Below are positions 43,677 through 62,582 of a stretch of 64,000 nt of DNA, piece by piece. Origin of the DNA: a virus (lineage: Duplodnaviria > Heunggongvirae > Uroviricota > Caudoviricetes). Made by a program: the position numbers and the translations under genes. The first letter of the stretch is position 1. Each line of letters begins with the position of its first letter. The DNA is taken from positions 41,064 through 105,063 of IMG/VR virus record IMGVR_UViG_3300009177_000029; one strand, given 5' to 3'. Under the pieces are notes generated by a model, which saw only the letters and a program-made list of their open reading frames with translations, did no database searches and was not told the DNA's origin.

Positions 43677-46406
43677 TCACTTGTCGAGCTTGTCAATCGG
43701 AAACTTGGCAGCCGGATCAATCCAGAGACTCTTCGTTACGGCCTTCTTCGCAGGCTTGACCGTCTTCACATCCTCTACTGGCGCAGAAGGTGCAAGTTCC
43801 GTCTTGCTAGTACCGATTGATGGCATACTTGGTGCAGTACGTAGTGGCTTTGGGGCTTCTGGCTGCTTCTTGTTGTAGCGACTCTCGAAGCTCTCGCACT
43901 TCACACCCTTGTACGCAGGAATACTATCCCAATGGCTCTGGTGATCCTCAGACCCGTGGTAGTCCTTGTCATGGATGCGACCAGGCTCGTGAAGTGGCAT
44001 TTCCTTTGCCATACGTTCAAAGTCTGCGTGTTCGGGCGAATCCTTCTTTGCCAGGCCCTTGTTGATGTAGTCCTTTGCAAATGAAGAGAACAACTGGTCA
44101 GGTAGTTGACCTTCGTCCTTCGTCTTGTTGTAGTTGTCCAAGCGGTCCATGATGCTATCTGCACCTGGTTCACCAAAGCTTGCACCAGGACGAGGCATTG
44201 GGTTCTTGCCTGCGCCTTGAAGAATGTAGCGTGTAGTCTCTGGTGGGATGTATCCGTGGGTTTCCTGCAAGTGCGATACGTACTTCTGTCGAAGATGCGT
44301 CTGCATAACCTGCCAAGGCTGCAATCCAGATCCTTCCATTGCACGCTCTGTTGCACCCAAGCTGTTGGACTTGAATCGCGTCATGAGGTGGTCTGGCACT
44401 GTCAGCGGCTTACCAGCAGCTTCCATACCGTAATGGATGCCGTTCTTGTGTCCCTGCATACCAGATGCGAAGGACAAGCCGTGGTCGATACCAACAACAT
44501 CAGAGTGGTCTTTGTTGACCACTAAGTTACCCATGTGGCGGTCGTTGTTGTTCATCACCATGTCCATGACCGCAAGCTCACTCATCTTGTTGTCAAACTT
44601 TTCCTTGTCTGGTGCAGCCGTGCGAAGTGCTTCATACGCATTGTTCGTTTTGTTGTTCGAACGTGAACCAGACATATTGGCGTCAGGCGTAGCTACCGTC
44701 TCCTCAGTGCCGAAGGACGCAGGAAGATAGCCATCCTTCCACTGCTGCAAGCTCGTCTCGCCCTTGTGTGTGCCGTGTTCACCAGTGCCAAGGCGTGCAA
44801 CTGTAGGTGGTACGTGTTCAGTCAAACCAAGGCTGTGTGCAAGATTCGATGCACCAACCTCCGACTTGTGACCAGAATCACGAGGCATGTTCGCTGCACC
44901 GTCTGCCCATCCGCCACCCTTGTAGATAGCCTCAGGAAATACAGGCGCAGGTTTCATAACTCCGGAACCGTTGCCTACAATCGTCACCTTGTGACTTACG
45001 TGCTGTCCTGCCAAACCTTCGGATGACAAGTTCTTCGCAGACCCGATGTCGCCCTCGGACAAGTGCGTGAGGGTCACGTCACGTGCGTGTGGTGTGCCGT
45101 TGTACGCAAGAGCCGTTGCGTCCATTGCCTTGTGCTGTGCTTCGATAGCATCTGGTGTTGTTGGCTTGGCACCACGCATCATAGCTTCCTGGTGCTTTTT
45201 CATGATCGCACCACCAGGCTTGTGCATCGTTGCCCCATTGCCGCCATGCTTCATACAGTCCGCGCCACCACCGAACGGACACGAGACATACATCGGACCG
45301 CCACCAGAGCCACCAGGCGTGCCTGAGCCTGGCTTTGGCAAACCGCCCGACGGACGACCTGGACCTGCGTGATTGCCCGGTGCAGCGGCACCTGGAAGCG
45401 ACGGCGTACCTGTGCCTTCCTTCTGATTCGAAGGAGCACCCTTTGGTTCTACTGTTGGTGAGATTCCACCCGAGACGCCAGAGCGTGCCTTTGCCAAGTG
45501 CTCTGCAAAGAGCGACTTGTTGAGCATCGAGAGCTTACCATCAACCCAACCATGTCCTGGTGGGACGTACACAATCGAACACCCACAACTTGGATGTAGT
45601 GGTGGCAAGGTGGTCTTCCAGTGCGTATGTCTACCGTTCTGCTTTGTGTGCGTGACGTCACCATCAGCATTCGAGCCAGCGCCCAAAAGTGTGGAGAGAC
45701 GAAATACACGTGGTTGACCATCAGCACCTGTGTAGTGGGATGTACAGTCCTCACAACAAAGTTGCCCTGGGATGACGCTTACCATCGACTCTGGACCGTC
45801 TGATAGCGCGTAGATACCGACCTTGTTTACGATAGCTTGTGCAGAGCCAGCTACCTTCGCTGCTTGCATAGCCGTTTCAGCCACAATCTTCCAGTTGCGG
45901 CGTTGGCCTGTCTGCAAACGCGATGCCAGGTTAGACGCAAGATCTTGTGCAGTCTTCCTGTAAATGATGGCAAGCGCGGTCTCGTCCGCTACTGTTTGGG
46001 AAACTACCGCCTCAGAGACTGCCTTGCCTAGCACTTGCGATAGCGAAGTATATACACCGTCTGCGATGTCCTGTGCAACACCCTTCATTTGCTGTCCCGC
46101 ACGAAGGCGAGCCTGTTCGACTACCAGCTCTTCGAGCGGTGACAACTTGTGTTGCGATTGAACTTCTTCGTAGTTGAGGTAGCTGTATTCACCGCGCTTG
46201 TAGAGCGCGCGAAACTTGCCCAAAAGATATGACTTGTCCGTCAAGTTCAGCGCTTGACCCATAGGAAGCTTTCCGTACTTCTTGAGTTCGGTTACTTCTG
46301 TTGGACTTAGCGCTGACTCTCCCAAGGTCGCGTATACAAGCCAGTTGGCATGGAGCCTAACAACGCGCTTTAGCTCCTGCATCTTCTGGGAGAACGATTG
46401 GGTCAT
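43677..46406 (-). CDS. MuF (SPP1 gp7-like head morphogenesis) protein fused to PI3/PI4-kinase-like domain
   Basis: CCEDC...LPPLHPSCGC (MuF); GVMKP, SEVGASNLAHSLG, SLQQW, DMVMNNNDRHMGN, GIDHGLSF (kinase). Confidence 0.82.
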   Translation of the reverse strand: MTQSFSQKMQELKRVVRLHANWLVYATLGESALSPTEVTELKKYGKLPMGQALNLTDKSYLLGKFRALYKRGEYSYLNYEEVQSQHKLSPLEELVVEQARLRAGQQMKGVAQDIADGVYTSLSQVLGKAVSEAVVSQTVADETALAIIYRKTAQDLASNLASRLQTGQRRNWKIVAETAMQAAKVAGSAQAIVNKVGIYALSDGPESMVSVIPGQLCCEDCTSHYTGADGQPRVFRLSTLLGAGSNADGDVTHTKQNGRHTHWKTTLPPLHPSCGCSIVYVPPGHGWVDGKLSMLNKSLFAEHLAKARSGVSGGISPTVEPKGAPSNQKEGTGTPSLPGAAAPGNHAGPGRPSGGLPKPGSGTPGGSGGGPMYVSCPFGGGADCMKHGGNGATMHKPGGAIMKKHQEAMMRGAKPTTPDAIEAQHKAMDATALAYNGTPHARDVTLTHLSEGDIGSAKNLSSEGLAGQHVSHKVTIVGNGSGVMKPAPVFPEAIYKGGGWADGAANMPRDSGHKSEVGASNLAHSLGLTEHVPPTVARLGTGEHGTHKGETSLQQWKDGYLPASFGTEETVATPDANMSGSRSNNKTNNAYEALRTAAPDKEKFDNKMSELAVMDMVMNNNDRHMGNLVVNKDHSDVVGIDHGLSFASGMQGHKNGIHYGMEAAGKPLTVPDHLMTRFKSNSLGATERAMEGSGLQPWQVMQTHLRQKYVSHLQETHGYIPPETTRYILQGAGKNPMPRPGASFGEPGADSIMDRLDNYNKTKDEGQLPDQLFSSFAKDYINKGLAKKDSPEHADFERMAKEMPLHEPGRIHDKDYHGSEDHQSHWDSIPAYKGVKCESFESRYNKKQPEAPKPLRTAPSMPSIGTSKTELAPSAPVEDVKTVKPAKKAVTKSLWIDPAAKFPIDKLDK

Positions 46407-47973: not shown

Positions 47974-49080
47974 TCAACGCCTCCAAGCTGGCGTAGCTAC
48001 ACGTGCGTCTAGTGCTGCTACCTGAGCGCAGCGTGGGCACGAAGAAAGACTCTTGTGCATGTAACCACAACCGCCGCATGACGTCATAAAGTCAGGGGCA
48101 AGAGGAGTTGCCGCAGACTGCACGACTGGAATCTCTACCGAAGCCACAACAGGTGCTTCGAATGGACGTGGCACGAAAGAAGCCTGAGCTACCTGTGGAC
48201 CGAAGAGCGTAGTCTCTCCGGATGTCGCGATAGGGTCAGGCTTTGGTGCAAGCTTTTCCTTCGAACGTGTCACCATAGAGAGAAGACGAGAGTTCAATCC
48301 CTTGAGAATGTCCGTTGCGCTGTGCGTACCGTTGCACTTCTCGCAAGTTTCACCATCGGTATTGTGCTCACAAGACTTGTCAATCTTCTGGCCTTCCTTC
48401 AATGGCTTTCCTTCCTCAGCGGCATGGTGCATCTTCTTGTCTCCGTACTTCTTGTTGCCAACAGCAGCAGCGATCTTGGCTGCACTCTCGGCAGAGTGGC
48501 CTTGTCCTTCAATCTTGCTCTGTAGCTTGTCAAAGCCGATGTGTGCCTTTTCCATGCCTGCGTTCTCCAAGTCTTCGTATGTGGCAATAGCCTTCTCAAG
48601 CTTAGCAGATGGATCCGCTAGGAACAAGTGCTTGATTAGTTTGCCTTTGTGGGATGTGAGCTTTTGCTTGAAATCGTCCATGTGGAACTCCTTCATTGAA
48701 CCGAAGAACTTCGGGTCGTTGTAGTGGTCCAAATAAGCCTGCTTAGCCTCAGTTGCTGAATGAAATCCGAGCATTACCTTCTGCTCGTCTACTTCTTTGA
48801 AGCCCGGCTTCTTCATCTGGGTAACTACGAAGACCTTGGTTGAGTCCTTCTTCGGACCCACAAATACGTCTACTTCATCACCGTCTGTACCCAACGTGCC
48901 ACGAATGTAGCCATATGGATACTTCATCTTTGTTGAACCCTTCTCACCTGAGTTTGGGTCATACCAATGGCGTGAAGACCCAGCTCGATTCTCTACGGAT
49001 ATAGGAAGACCTTGAAACTCCACCTTTCCATGGAGTTTGTAAGCCTTCTCCATGTTCTCCGCAGAGAGATAGAGATTCAT
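47974..49080 (-). CDS. Inorganic pyrophosphatase-like domain protein (polyvalent-protein InPase type)
   Basis: FQGLPISVEN, YPYGYIRGTLGTDGDEVDVFVG, DEQKVMLGF...AKQAYLDHY; start trimmed to MNLYLSAENMEKA. Confidence 0.8.
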   Translation of the reverse strand: MNLYLSAENMEKAYKLHGKVEFQGLPISVENRAGSSRHWYDPNSGEKGSTKMKYPYGYIRGTLGTDGDEVDVFVGPKKDSTKVFVVTQMKKPGFKEVDEQKVMLGFHSATEAKQAYLDHYNDPKFFGSMKEFHMDDFKQKLTSHKGKLIKHLFLADPSAKLEKAIATYEDLENAGMEKAHIGFDKLQSKIEGQGHSAESAAKIAAAVGNKKYGDKKMHHAAEEGKPLKEGQKIDKSCEHNTDGETCEKCNGTHSATDILKGLNSRLLSMVTRSKEKLAPKPDPIATSGETTLFGPQVAQASFVPRPFEAPVVASVEIPVVQSAATPLAPDFMTSCGGCGYMHKSLSSCPRCAQVAALDARVATPAWRR

Positions 49081-50852
49081 CCGCCACCTCGGTAAGCGTC
49101 CATCCATTCATCTTCCAACGAGATTTCCAAGACCTTTGTCTTGTCACCCAGACTGATGGACTTAGTAAACCCATCAGAGTATTGAGGTCCGCTGCCCTTG
49201 TCAGGCTGCTGGCTTCCCTGGTCGCCACCCTGGCCTTGCGCCTGTGCTCCGGGAGCTGCCCCAGCCGTTGCGCCGGTTGCTGCTTCCATCTGCTTCTGCT
49301 GAATCTCGCGCTGTCCAAGCTGCTGGATGTACGCGGTGTACACAGGGTTCATTACTACGTCACCGTGTGGCACGTCAGCCAAGTCCTCGGCACGACGAAT
49401 CTCGTTCATCGTCTTGTACGTCGCAAGTTGTTCCTTGCGAAGTTCATGCTTTTCCTGCTCAGTAAGCTCATCCAAGCCCACGAAATCAAACGTGAAGTTG
49501 TCATCTAGCTTGTGAACAATCTGGTCATTGATCTGCTTTGCGATGAAGCGAAGCATTGGCTTGAGACCACGGTCTCGGGATGCCTTGAGCTTCCATTCCT
49601 GAGACGACTCGAAAAGTGGTGTCTGCTGGACACCGCCATGCATGTCGAAGTTCAACTCAGCGGGGTCGATGAGGAACACAGCGCATGTGATCTTGATGAG
49701 GTACTCGATCCACATCGAGTATTCCATCTCTTGGTTCGATGGATGCAAGTCAACCCAATCGACGCCCTGCTCTGCCTGCATGATAGGCGTACGCCACGAG
49801 TTCTCAACACCTTCAAGGTTTGCACGCCACTGACGCTTGAATGCCTCAAGCTGGTCTGGCGTCAAGTTGTCACCCTTGAAGTTCAAGATACCCTTAGGAG
49901 CCGAGCCCTGCATGAAGAAGCGGCGGTTGTACTCCTCAGCGAATAGGTGGGCGGTGATGATGGTGATGAGCTGCTCAAGTTCTGAGTAACCGTATCCCTG
50001 CACGTAAATGTCCGAACGTGGGTTGCGGACGCCGAACGCAAGTTCGTTGCGTGTGTACGTGCTGCGCACAACACCGTTCACAATCTGGATGTAGCTCGGA
50101 ACGTCTTCAATCTCAGGATTGCGTACATGCATGGTCTTGTACGGCATCTGTAGATTGGTCATCATAGCGTTTGGCACAATCGATTGTGGCCACTGACCCA
50201 GGTTCTGTGTCACTGCGTGCCTCTGTGCCGTAGCGTAGTCGAGGTCGATGTTGTTCGCTGCCAATCGAATCGTAGATGCATCTACAGCCATGAACTCGTA
50301 GGGCATGCCACGACGGTCCGGCACTACTTCAAAGCAAGACTGGTCGTACATGAGTGAGTCACGTACGATCTTCTTGAGGAAGGTCTCAAAGTCATCGCGA
50401 GCTACCGGGCTGTGAGGATTTGGATCCTTCGCGCCACACTTGTAGATGAAGTTCTCCATCGACTGGATGAACTCACGTTCACCCTTTGTCGTTGAACGAG
50501 CTGGATTGCGGTGCTTGATTTCGAAGCCCAAAGACTTGGACATACGGTATGGGCTAGCAAAGGAGGCAACCTGCATACAGCGAGTCTGGATGATTGCAGC
50601 AATCAAGGAGAGTTGCTGAGGAATGCGCTTGAGCACATCATACGTGAGCGAGTAACGACGGTCCTTGTAACCCATAGCAAACTGAATGCTAAGTGGGTCG
50701 AACATCAAAGACTTCGGACCGTTCTTTGCCTTACCTGGTTCGAGTCTGGACTTCGTGATTTCGTCATGTACCAATAGAGGCACAGCACTAGTAGCATCAC
50801 GCCACGTGCTTACCTTGTCTACCCAAACGCCGAAATCGTTACCTGTGGTCAT
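49077..50852 (-). CDS. Portal protein
   Basis: IVRDSLMYDQ..FEV, VDASTIR, YGYSELEQL, FFMQGSAPKGIL, TMNEIRRAEDL. Confidence 0.93.
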   Translation of the reverse strand: MTTGNDFGVWVDKVSTWRDATSAVPLLVHDEITKSRLEPGKAKNGPKSLMFDPLSIQFAMGYKDRRYSLTYDVLKRIPQQLSLIAAIIQTRCMQVASFASPYRMSKSLGFEIKHRNPARSTTKGEREFIQSMENFIYKCGAKDPNPHSPVARDDFETFLKKIVRDSLMYDQSCFEVVPDRRGMPYEFMAVDASTIRLAANNIDLDYATAQRHAVTQNLGQWPQSIVPNAMMTNLQMPYKTMHVRNPEIEDVPSYIQIVNGVVRSTYTRNELAFGVRNPRSDIYVQGYGYSELEQLITIITAHLFAEEYNRRFFMQGSAPKGILNFKGDNLTPDQLEAFKRQWRANLEGVENSWRTPIMQAEQGVDWVDLHPSNQEMEYSMWIEYLIKITCAVFLIDPAELNFDMHGGVQQTPLFESSQEWKLKASRDRGLKPMLRFIAKQINDQIVHKLDDNFTFDFVGLDELTEQEKHELRKEQLATYKTMNEIRRAEDLADVPHGDVVMNPVYTAYIQQLGQREIQQKQMEAATGATAGAAPGAQAQGQGGDQGSQQPDKGSGPQYSDGFTKSISLGDKTKVLEISLEDEWMDAYRGGG

Positions 50853-55337: not shown

Positions 55338-56918
55338 TCAGAGTGCAACCTGATTGATCTTGTCCGTCCAGAAAGTTGCCGATCCGGTGTTGGACGAGAA
55401 CTCGTTGATTACTTCGAACACGTTGTCCGAGAAACCACCAACATTCAACGTATCCTTGCGGGTCGTTGCCTGCGTCGTGTTCTCGACCTGAATGTCGATG
55501 CAAACCAACTTTGCCTTCGGGTTTCGTGTCTTGAACACATCCCACTCAGACTGTAGGTTTCCGCCGTAGCGTGCTCCCCAGGTGTAGTTGTGTGCCCAGG
55601 ACTCGTTATCCGAGACCATGATGATGAGATCACCTGCCGCCTTCTCACGGTTCAACAATGCAACCGGAGCTGCACAGTTCGTTCCGCCACCAGGCGCCTT
55701 CATGATCTTCTGCGCGTTGGTCATGATGGAGTCGAACGGATTCAACTTCTCACGCCATGCGTCCGTGTGGAACAAGATGACCTCTGCGTCAGGGTTCTTG
55801 CGAAGAACCGATGCTGCCACGAGGGCTGCAACATCCTTGCAAGTCGTCTTCGACGTTGCACCCGCACGGTGACCCGTAACAGGTGAACCCATCGAACCCG
55901 ACACGTCAATCATCACGTAGACCTTGCCTTCGTACTTTGGAACGTTCGCCGTAGCGTGCTCCATTGCCTCTTGCAAAGCGTTCGTGATCTTCGCAGGCAC
56001 CGCAGGGTCTGCGTTCAAGTACGCGGTAAGAAGCTGATAAGGGAAAGCGCGAGCCTTCAAGACCTCATCCTTCGAACCGAGACGATGTGCGATGGTGTTG
56101 ACCATCTTCTGGTTCTTGAGAACGCCGTGACGCTCAAACGTGTTGAGGTTCATGCGCGTCATCATCCAGCCCGCCTTCTCTGCGATGGACGACCACTGCT
56201 TCTCAGTGAGAGGCAAGGACGTCAACATGCGGAAATCAACGTCTGGAACTTCCAGAGAAGTGTTCTTCTTGAAGTTCTCGTACTGCTGGATCACACCAGG
56301 AAGAGCTGCGGACTGTGCATCCGTCAACTTCTTGCCGATGAGGTACGCGTACATAGCCTCACGAGACGCACCTTCTGGCGATGGGTGGACCATCTTGATC
56401 ACGTCACCCAACGAAGGCTTGTCGCCTACGGAGTCACGGAACAAAGAACCGTCCTTACGACCGTTCAACCATGCCTGAATCGCCTTCTTCGGCGCAGAGC
56501 CAAGTGACTTACGTCCAACTGCACCGGAGCGCATGATCTGGACGAAGTTACGAAGCATCTTGCCATTGTCGATGACGCGAGGGAACGTCTTCTTGAAGAG
56601 GTCAGCATCACGCGTCGAAAGAACTGCAAGAAGGAATGCAGGCATGTCCTTCATGAAACCCTTGTCACGAGCGTAGATTGCCGTCTTCGCCAAGAACTCA
56701 GGGGAAACCTTCTGCGCGAGCGCAAGAGTTTCCTTCATCTGACGTTCTGCCGTCGAATAGAACGTGTCGTTGAACGTACCAGTGCATGCATACTGAGCTA
56801 GCGCAGCCTCATCAGCCATTGCGTAAGCCGTACCGCCTGCCTTGTTTACCGCGTCTGGCTTACGAGAAGCCTTGCGAACTGCGGATACACCACCACGAAA
56901 TAGATTTGCGTTTGCCAT
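55338..56918 (-). CDS. rsr: Ro60/Rsr TROVE-domain RNA-binding protein
   Basis: AGGTAY..EAALAQYACTGTFNDTFY, MKDMPAFLLA, WMMTRMNLNTFERHG, ARAFPYQL, vWA MIDVSGSM and SDNESW. Confidence 0.95.
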   Translation of the reverse strand: MANANLFRGGVSAVRKASRKPDAVNKAGGTAYAMADEAALAQYACTGTFNDTFYSTAERQMKETLALAQKVSPEFLAKTAIYARDKGFMKDMPAFLLAVLSTRDADLFKKTFPRVIDNGKMLRNFVQIMRSGAVGRKSLGSAPKKAIQAWLNGRKDGSLFRDSVGDKPSLGDVIKMVHPSPEGASREAMYAYLIGKKLTDAQSAALPGVIQQYENFKKNTSLEVPDVDFRMLTSLPLTEKQWSSIAEKAGWMMTRMNLNTFERHGVLKNQKMVNTIAHRLGSKDEVLKARAFPYQLLTAYLNADPAVPAKITNALQEAMEHATANVPKYEGKVYVMIDVSGSMGSPVTGHRAGATSKTTCKDVAALVAASVLRKNPDAEVILFHTDAWREKLNPFDSIMTNAQKIMKAPGGGTNCAAPVALLNREKAAGDLIIMVSDNESWAHNYTWGARYGGNLQSEWDVFKTRNPKAKLVCIDIQVENTTQATTRKDTLNVGGFSDNVFEVINEFSSNTGSATFWTDKINQVAL

Positions 56919-57228: not shown

Positions 57229-57230
57229 AG

Positions 57231-57316
57231 ATCCCGAGGGTGGACTTAAACCACCGACCTTTAGGCCAAATGTGTGCACAACAGCCTAACGCTCTATTTC
57301 TCTGAGCTACTCGGAA
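57231..57316 (-). tRNA. tRNA-Asn-like with 19-nt anticodon loop
   Basis: Acceptor, D and T arms intact; TTAGG/CCTAA stem encloses CTGTTGTGCACACATTTGG. Confidence 0.6.
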
Positions 57317-57668: not shown

Positions 57669-57697
57669 AGTATGACCTCAGGTGCGGAGGTTGTCAA
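57669..57697 (-). promoter_or_regulatory. Sigma70-type promoter
   Basis: TTGACA-N17-CATACT, 15 nt upstream of tRNA-Glu. Confidence 0.65.
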
Positions 57698-57701
57698 GGA
57701 A

Positions 57702-57927
57702 CTTCTCTATAGCCGCGGTTTTGTCCAAAATCGACTGACAGGGCCGATTTCTGTTTGTACATTCCTCTAGTGGCATCAACCCGGGCGTCAACATCCTGCT
57801 TTCCGACTCTGCCCTGTTTGACTTGCTCCCTCCATGGTACGGACGGCTTTTGGCCTCCCATGTCTAGCAGTGGAGCCGCGAACTTCCTCACATCCCAACA
57901 AGTGGGTTAGTGCGTACAACCGAGAAG
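57702..57927 (-). ncRNA. rnpB: Minimal RNase P RNA (catalytic domain, vestigial S domain, no P18)
   Basis: GAGGAAGTTCGCGG pairs with ACAAAACCGCGGC (P4 with bulged U); P1, P2, P3, P5, P6 pseudoknot, P7, P15-17 with L15 GGU, P19; GAGCAAG and CTAGAGGAATG conserved runs. Confidence 0.85.
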
Positions 57928-57933
57928 AAACCA

Positions 57934-58021
57934 CGGAGAGCAGAGGAATCGCACCCCATACGCTTTTACACGTACCCTCTGTTTAGCAAACAGTGCCGAC
58001 TACTAAGTCGAGTTACTCTCC
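57934..58021 (-). tRNA. tRNA-Ser(GCT)
   Basis: Long variable arm; loop TT-GCT-AA. Confidence 0.82.
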
Positions 58022-58028
58022 AAGAACT

Positions 58029-61438: not shown

Positions 61439-61510
61439 AGCTGGTACAGGAACTTGCATCCTGATCACATCCATACCAAGGAAGTGTGTCTCTATTTACA
61501 CCTTACCAGC
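61439..61510 (-). tRNA. tRNA-Thr(GGT)
   Basis: Loop TT-GGT-AT; T loop TGCAAGT. Confidence 0.82.
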
Positions 61511-62507: not shown

Positions 62508-62582
62508 TGGCAGATTCCCGTGGTCATACTCCACGATCTTTCCCCGTTGTCAGGGATGCTCTGAAACTTGAGCTAGGAACCT
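62508..62582 (-). tRNA. Degenerate tRNA-Val(GAC)-like gene
   Basis: Acceptor, D and T stems pair; anticodon arm misregistered; T loop AGTATGA; encoded CCA. Confidence 0.5.

Follow-up and report, generated by a model that had tools for sequence, protein, structure and literature searches.

Does a tailed phage carry, within its own tRNA array, a gene for the RNA of RNase P? Few ribozymes are universal, RNase P RNA being one of them, and to our knowledge its gene has so far been regarded as confined to cells (and organelles). The question was raised by a locus in the window, by which we mean the whole stretch of 64,000 nt of a virus record that was analyzed. The original prediction, made without database searches, held that this locus encodes a miniature RNase P RNA of ~226 nt in which the catalytic domain is kept. 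Covariance-model (CM) matches, covariation in relatives, and the virus context all bear this out, and positions 57702-57927 (minus strand) are almost certainly an RNase P RNA homologue maintained by selection.

Homology of the Phage Element to Bacterial RNase P RNA

When a 1-kb stretch was searched with permissive filters, the Rfam model of bacterial type A RNase P RNA (RF00010) aligned end to end, model positions 1-367 corresponding to 57694-57931 (minus strand), with a score of 32 bits and an E-value of 4.1e-8. The alignment contained three local ends, and 140 S-domain positions of the model were represented by 38 nt. At 32 bits the element lies below the gathering threshold of RF00010 (100 bits), at which only tRNAs were reported in the window; the shortfall is explained by the missing S-domain and P18. 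No match to the element was obtained with the other RNase P families, including RF02357, in a scan of all families at E ≤ 10. A CM search with RNase P families had been suggested as a check of the original prediction, and RF00010 was the family that answered it. The accompanying comparison with archaeal type T RNAs was apt as an analogy, but the type T model itself (RF02357) was silent at this cut-off. Judged by its sequence, the window RNA appears to descend from bacterial type A RNase P RNA.

Two further models were built from the phage lineage itself. Model R1, whose structure was checked by hand, was constructed from two relatives only (L003 and L006), with the window left out; it recovered the window element with a score of 45.5 bits (E 4.8e-13, ~1 Mb searched). 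Model R2, constructed from the window and the metagenome contig L255, scored the element at 292 bits as a single copy in the phage genome and gave 39-62 bits for the members of a second subtype, B. A prefiltered search of the phage's own genome with RF00010 did not report the element even at E ≤ 10, because the first-look filter chose three other candidates; R2 found the element through the same search. The thermodynamic fold of the isolated sequence was no better than those of shuffles (z = -0.17), and z-scores near those of shuffles are usual for pseudoknotted RNA, but thermodynamics lends the element no support. Since the Rfam model scores neither P4 nor P6 as pairs, the compensated P4 and the complementarity of P6 constitute evidence beyond the score.

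Parts of the Element

Inspection of the sequence located all helices of the original prediction on the minus strand. The parts are as follows.

57702-57927, minus strand: whole RNase P RNA, from the 5′ strand to the 3′ strand of P1 (226 nt; CM match 57694-57931)
57922-57927, minus strand: P1 5′ strand CUUCUC, pairing with GAGAAG at 57702-57707; identical in L255, of other sequences and still paired in relatives
57913-57919, minus strand: P2 5′ strand UUGUACG, pairing with UGUACAA at 57755-57761; two double changes and one G-C to G-U change against L255
57889-57912, minus strand: P3 hairpin with a CAC/GUG outer stem and a CCCA/UGGG inner stem; A-U to U-A swap in L255
57876-57889, minus strand: J3/4 and P4 5′ strand, GAGGAAGUUCGCGG, with a bulged U (57882 or 57881); two positions swapped against the CR-I consensus GAGGAAAGUCCGGG
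57883-57876 and 57718-57712, minus strand: P4, GUUCGCGG with CCGCGGC; 7 pairs plus A-U, one bulged U
57711-57718, minus strand: P4 3′ strand CCGCGGCU within ACAAAACCGCGGCUAUA (CR-V), pairing with 57876-57884
57823-57829, minus strand: 3′ strand GGAG of P5 (CUCC/GGAG) and CAA of J5/15 (position of E. coli A248); GGAGCAA is the exact Rfam consensus
57866-57870, minus strand: P6 pseudoknot strand CUGCU, pairing with AGCAG at 57796-57800 in the P17 loop; AAACA/UGUUU or AAGCA/UGCUU at this place in subtype B
57862-57858 and 57837-57833, minus strand: P7, CAUGG with CCAUG, enclosing 20 nt (57857-57838); A-U to G-C in L255
57775-57822, minus strand: P15 (GUC/GAU), P16 (GGGC/GCCC), and P17 (GUCGG/UUGAC); double changes in P15 and P16 against L255
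57778-57782, minus strand: L15 loop GGGUU, with CCCGGGUUGAU present; CGGGUUG invariant in 13 of 13 members
57762-57774, minus strand: P15-to-P2 junction GCCACUAGAGGAA (J18/2, CR-IV) with P18 deleted
57727-57751, minus strand: P19-like hairpin in J2/4, 9 bp with a 7-nt loop, folding at -8.0 kcal/mol

The window RNA keeps a C domain that comprises P1-P5, including the bulged-U P4, as well as P6, P15-P17, L15 GGU, J5/15, J18/2, and J2/4, and its CR-I strand reads GAGGAAGUUCGCGGCUCC. Additional covariation was observed in P2 of subtype B, in which P16 and P17 covary as well. The length of P3 ranged from 16 to 83 nt across relatives, and an unrelated sequence at the J2/4 site of L255 also forms a hairpin (-8.8 kcal/mol). 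The claim that the S domain is reduced to ~20 nt proved accurate, as exactly 20 nt lie inside P7, among them a stub hairpin GGC-CAAAA-GCC at 57845-57855. P18 is absent as well, in agreement with the prediction: 23 Rfam positions of P18 are reduced to 1 nt, 6 nt lie between P15 and J18/2, and without P18 the junction reads CUAGAGGAAUG.

Register of the P4 Helix

P4 had been described as swapped but compensated relative to E. coli, and we found two pairs compensated against the bacterial consensus, together with one added U-G pair. The register of the helix differs: E. coli has AAAG-U-CCGGG / CCCGG-C-UU and the phage lineage has AAG-U-UCGCGG / CCGCGG-C-U, which amounts to a shift by one pair, with J3/4 shorter by one A and an extra U-G pair after the bulged U. 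The 5′ strand of P4 was invariant in all family members, which had themselves been selected by an 18-mer of the P4/P5 strand.

Cellular genomes were scanned with the two compensated P4 positions left free, and at least 108 new loci came up. The sole real rnpB among the matches listed was L552, a full-size type A RNA with GUUCCGGG/CCCGGGC. This gene lies in a Candidatus Limnocylindria MAG (contig DASSSF010000099.1), and its P4, GAGGAAG-U-UCCGGG / CCCGGG-C-U, is in the shifted register. The shifted register of P4 thus appears to be rare and not exclusive to phages. Two search patterns were discarded: GGAGCAANTCAAACAGG occurred at 116 viral loci, almost none of which were RNase P, and GCCACTAGAGGAATG, which was too short, occurred at 18 viral loci and 120 cellular ones, with no core motifs near any of them.

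Relatives of the Element and Compensatory Changes

The 18-mer of the P4/P5 strand occurred in 6 other IMG/VR contigs and 75 metagenome contigs. RF00010 scored the relatives L003 and L005 at 45.3 bits and L004 at 40.6 bits (E 1e-11 to 1e-13), and R1 picked up ~15 more members, 211-397 nt long, from viral and metagenome contigs. All relatives were located within tRNA arrays, immediately upstream of a tRNA. Of the 43 cellular genome contigs in which the exact 18-mer occurs, none gave a ribozyme match, and BLASTN of the locus against 50,697 GenBank phage records gave no match. Two viral contigs with the exact 18-mer (L001 and L002) gave neither an alignment nor a model match and were set aside as chance matches. 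Relatives reached via the neighboring deformylase were 29-42% identical, and none of them had a model match.

The relatives fell into two subtypes. Subtype A consists of the window and L255, a 17.6-kb contig on which the genes follow one another as in the window: Ser, Ser, ribozyme, Glu, Glu, Gly, Gly, Cys, Thr, Thr, Gln. On the same contig, L255:149-222 is a tRNA with anticodon CUA (tRNA-Pyl according to ARAGORN), which resembles an amber suppressor. In subtype B, which comprises the other contigs, the ribozyme always ended 2-10 nt before tRNA-Ala(GGC).

Comparison of the window with L255 gave 57 pairs with 100% of cells paired, no broken pair, and one change from G-C to G-U. Six pairs were changed on both sides, two in P2 and one each in P3, P7, P15, and P16. 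All six slid controls gave 0 double changes and 35-49% pairing. Across the two subtypes, MAFFT and CM-based alignments misplaced P2/P3/P17/P18; because such automated alignment was unreliable, each helix was read at fixed offsets from invariant anchors for a table of 13 sequences. This table contained alternative canonical pairs in P1, P2, P3, P6, P7, P15, P16, and P17, and only 2 non-canonical cells overall. For example, P16 occurred as GGGC/GCCC, GGCC/GGCC, GGAC/GUCC, and GAGC/GCUC, and P6 as CUGCU/AGCAG, AAACA/UGUUU, and AAGCA/UGCUU. These patterns of substitution indicate that selection acts on all helices of the C domain.

Loss of the S-Domain and P18

The S-domain (P8-P14, CR-II/CR-III) binds the T-loop/D-loop elbow, and P18 normally docks onto the S-domain through a GNRA loop on P8. 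The stretch enclosed by P7 was 20 nt in the window, 19 nt in L255, and 33-34, 43, 49, 90, 102, 112, 137, and 181 nt in subtype B. Three relatives, L006:7126-7374, L261:3141-3446, and L004:1485-1837, were near-identical outside the insert and had inserts of 33, 90, and 137 nt, respectively; the long insert of L004 could not be aligned to the Rfam model. With insert lengths between 19 and 181 nt across the relatives, the S-domain position is hypervariable and would be a dispensable cassette in the lineage; it behaves as one prone to swapping. The P18 region was 4-6 nt in the window, L255, L258, and L268 and 31-40 nt in the other members, in which it comprises two GNRA-capped hairpins.

Near-full-size RNase P RNAs (~286-323 nt) were found in other viral contigs, at L016:4029-4347 (on a 463-kb contig), L079:4461-4783, and L008:343-628, and also in L034; an RNase P RNA of the same group starts at ~6750 in L024 and runs to the end of that locus. 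These copies have a canonical P4, a recognizable S-domain (ACAGAGACGAGUC, GGGUGAAACG), and flanking tRNA genes. Their presence in other large phage contigs suggests that the window RNA stands at the reduced extreme of a broader set of phage RNase P RNAs.

The tRNA Array and the Phage Genome

The virus record, from a tailed soil phage, is 169,063 bp long, has direct terminal repeats, and is rated complete. Genes near the element encode a portal protein, a Ro60/TROVE protein, a peptide deformylase, and an HNH nuclease. The Ro60/TROVE protein (55338-56918, minus strand, 526 aa; vWA_Ro60 65 bits, TROVE 32 bits) lies inside the tRNA array, and Y-RNA-like partners would be expected nearby. Beside the portal gene are two ORFs, one of 909 aa with a PI3/PI4-kinase-like domain (43677-46406, minus strand; 39.6 bits) and one of 377 aa with an inorganic-pyrophosphatase (InPase) domain (47974-49107, minus strand).

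ARAGORN found 32 tRNA genes, all on the same strand, and relaxed settings added 5; with a Ser(GCU)-like gene the total is ~38. Many spacers between these same-strand genes are 3-6 nt, as expected from the original description of a tight tRNA array. The description of many non-canonical T loops was overstated: the T-loop was canonical in 29 of the 32 ARAGORN tRNAs (3 odd), and once the relaxed calls, of which 3 of 5 are odd, and the Ser(GCU)-like gene are counted in, the odd ones amount to ~7 of 38, so that the proposed link between the ribozyme and such T loops is weak. The relaxed tRNA-like genes with non-canonical T-loops lie at 57230-57316, 61439-61510, and 62508-62582 (minus strand) and are His-GUG (87 nt), Thr-GGU, and Cys-ACA. 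Two features immediately adjoin the element.

57934-58022, minus strand: upstream tRNA-Ser(GCU)-like gene; 46.8 bits with the tRNA-Sec model (cut-off 47), missed by ARAGORN
57669-57697, minus strand: sigma-70-like promoter TTGACA-17-CATACT, between P1 of the ribozyme and tRNA-Glu(CUC); a consensus match only (10/12)

In the Ser(GCU)-like gene, the anticodon loop is UUGCUAA, the variable arm is long, and the T-loop, GUGCGAUUC, is odd; 2-3 nt separate the end of this gene from the ribozyme. The promoter-like site after the ribozyme suggests that internal promoters may exist within the array; no terminator-like site was found on the promoter's strand.

L15 GGU binds the 3′ RCCA of tRNA. CCA was encoded by none of the 32 tRNA genes, which makes the use of L15 GGU in the phage RNA uncertain. 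Outside the window, the same phage encodes a CCA-adding-type nucleotidyltransferase (G000:C1:3873-4238, locus L510; PF01743, 138 bits, in a 416-aa frame). No match to RnpA (PF00825) was found in the 169-kb genome at E ≤ 1, in a search in which 10 of 14 controls matched; a host protein would therefore have to serve.

Traces in Environmental DNA and RNA Libraries

Near-identical DNA was present in rhizosphere metagenomes, and partial matches were found in soil metagenomes. The sequencing runs X5-X24 and X28-X33 shared small numbers of words with the locus and are no evidence of habitat. RNA-library contigs from X25 and X26, which are probably the same data, covered 57772-57929 with 90-95% likeness, carrying an adapter at one end and stopping at the predicted 5′ end of the element at the other. 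A peat metatranscriptome (X27) covered 57756-57886 with 95-99% likeness. The variants in the RNA contigs lay in the loop and the 3′ tail of the stub (C89/C90 to U, a state shared with L255), with one in inner P3. These contigs give a weak hint that relatives of the element are transcribed, as DNA carry-over is possible in such libraries. Stretches of the locus that they leave uncovered carry no weight as evidence.

Function of the Element

By analogy with the C domain of the E. coli RNA, the element is probably a working ribozyme, consisting of the C domain only and acting with host RnpA, that cuts the packed phage pre-tRNAs independently of the elbow. The ribozyme RNA would be transcribed together with the tRNA array and would bind the host RnpA protein, and the 5′ leaders of the closely spaced phage pre-tRNAs would then be cleaved. 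With spacers of 3-6 nt, RNase P cuts alone could separate neighboring tRNAs. Substrates would be recognized through the acceptor stem and the cleavage-site contacts of the C domain, not through the T-loop/D-loop elbow, and the phage would obtain extra processing capacity for a burst of ~38 tRNA precursors. In the E. coli study (PMC5839562), the C domain without the S-domain cleaved whether or not the C5 protein was present, cleavage depended on a P6-type interaction, and P18 was not needed; C-domain-only ribozymes were much less efficient in vitro than full-size ones. We counted this low efficiency against a working ribozyme, together with the score of 32 against 100 bits, the lack of a phage RnpA, a fold equal to that of shuffles, and the unusual register of P4. 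A broader proposal, on which we see the scales as level, is that the S-domain is a disposable and exchangeable insert in the phage lineage, and that the RNA in its minimal form would actively process packed and partly non-canonical tRNA-like RNAs without relying on the elbow, either independently of the host ribozyme or competing with it.

The evidence bears differently on the other explanations. Resemblance by chance, in which short helices and motifs happen to meet in an intergenic stretch, might be suspected from the z-score of -0.17 and from the silence of the family search of the phage's own genome, but it is refuted by the calibrated E-values of two independent models (4e-8 and 5e-13) and by the covariation among homologues, and R2 finds the element in the same genome search; its probability is practically nil. 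A decaying, non-functional rnpB remnant acquired along with host tRNA genes is very improbable and strongly disfavored. Such a remnant might well have lost its S-domain and P18, score far under the family threshold, and vary wildly in the length of its P7 insert; a pseudogene is expected to accumulate helix-breaking changes, however, and 2 non-canonical cells were seen, every C-domain helix being kept by compensatory change across two diverged subtypes, with invariant core strands, a conserved position in the array, and synteny with L255.

It is less far-fetched, though still unlikely, that the element is a genuine RNase P RNA derivative with another job, either a decoy for RnpA, by which host RNase P would be diverted or switched off, or a specialized enzyme for non-tRNA or tRNA-like substrates. 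Candidates for the latter would be Y-RNA-like or permuted tRNA-like RNAs tied to Ro60, or tRNAs with odd elbows. The element keeps J18/2, J2/4, and P2-P4, which are regions known to bind RnpA, and has lost elbow recognition; the presence of a Ro60/TROVE protein in the same array, the unusual T-loops in ~7 of 38 tRNA-like genes, and the free variation of the S-domain position among relatives would also fit. For a protein sponge, however, the strictly conserved catalytic core (bulged-U P4, covarying P6, L15 GGU, and J5/15) would be superfluous, and it also counts against this reading that most of the phage tRNAs are ordinary.

Significance and Comparison with Known RNase P RNAs

If the reading as a working C-domain ribozyme is true, this would be the first RNase P encoded by a virus and also the first bacterial-type "C-domain-only" RNase P of natural origin. 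No published phage- or virus-encoded RNase P RNA was found in the full-text literature, in which subscription journals are poorly covered, and the P finder survey paper (PMC7191817) does not mention phages. A virus-encoded lineage would add an RNA catalyst to the translation functions of phages (tRNAs, CCA-adding enzyme, and deformylase), and the natural loss of the S-domain and P18 would be an evolutionary replay of laboratory minimization and of archaeal type T. It would also provide a small natural scaffold (~210-230 nt) for studying the choice of cleavage site by the catalytic domain alone, and the dispensability of elbow recognition in vivo would become directly testable. Genes of this kind escape standard annotation, being below the Rfam threshold and missed by a filtered genome search.

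The E. coli M1 RNA (rnpB; RF00010) resembles the window RNA in the architecture of the C domain, in the P15-P16-P17 arm with L15 GGU, and in P6. The core sequences that the window RNA has in common with bacterial type A are GAGGAA..UC..GGCUCCA (CR-I/P4), GGAGCAA (J5/15), CUAGA.GAAUG (CR-IV), and ACA.AACC..G..UA (CR-V). The differences lie in size (226 nt as against ~350-400 nt), in the replacement of P8-P14, CR-II/III, and the T-loop binding modules by a 20-nt stub, in the absence of P18, in the shifted register of P4, and in the fact that the window RNA is virus-encoded and has no cognate rnpA. The near-full-size phage RNase P RNAs (L016, L079/L034, and L008) are virus-borne and flanked by tRNA genes like the window RNA, but they keep a canonical P4 and an S-domain, and the window RNA has neither.

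The earlier "Mini-P/Micro-P" designs are reportedly laboratory constructs of the C domain of E. coli RNase P RNA. The Eco CP RPR (PMC5839562) likewise consists of the C domain only, is dependent on P6, and can dispense with P18, and the window RNA similarly has P6 and lacks both the S-domain and P18. The laboratory constructs, however, are engineered deletions of reduced efficiency, whereas the window RNA appears to be a natural gene under selection that has a P4 variant of its own and a P19-like hairpin. A natural parallel in reduction is archaeal type T (Pyrobaculum; Rfam RF02357), whose RNAs stay active without most of the S-domain (Lai et al. 2010, cited in PMC7191817) and which, in that survey, is confined to one archaeal group, called an order and named Thermoproteaceae. 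Type T RNAs are of archaeal ancestry and have archaeal protein partners, whereas the window RNA belongs to the bacterial lineage. The phage RNA thus appears to be an independent, bacterial-lineage case of a reduction like that of type T.
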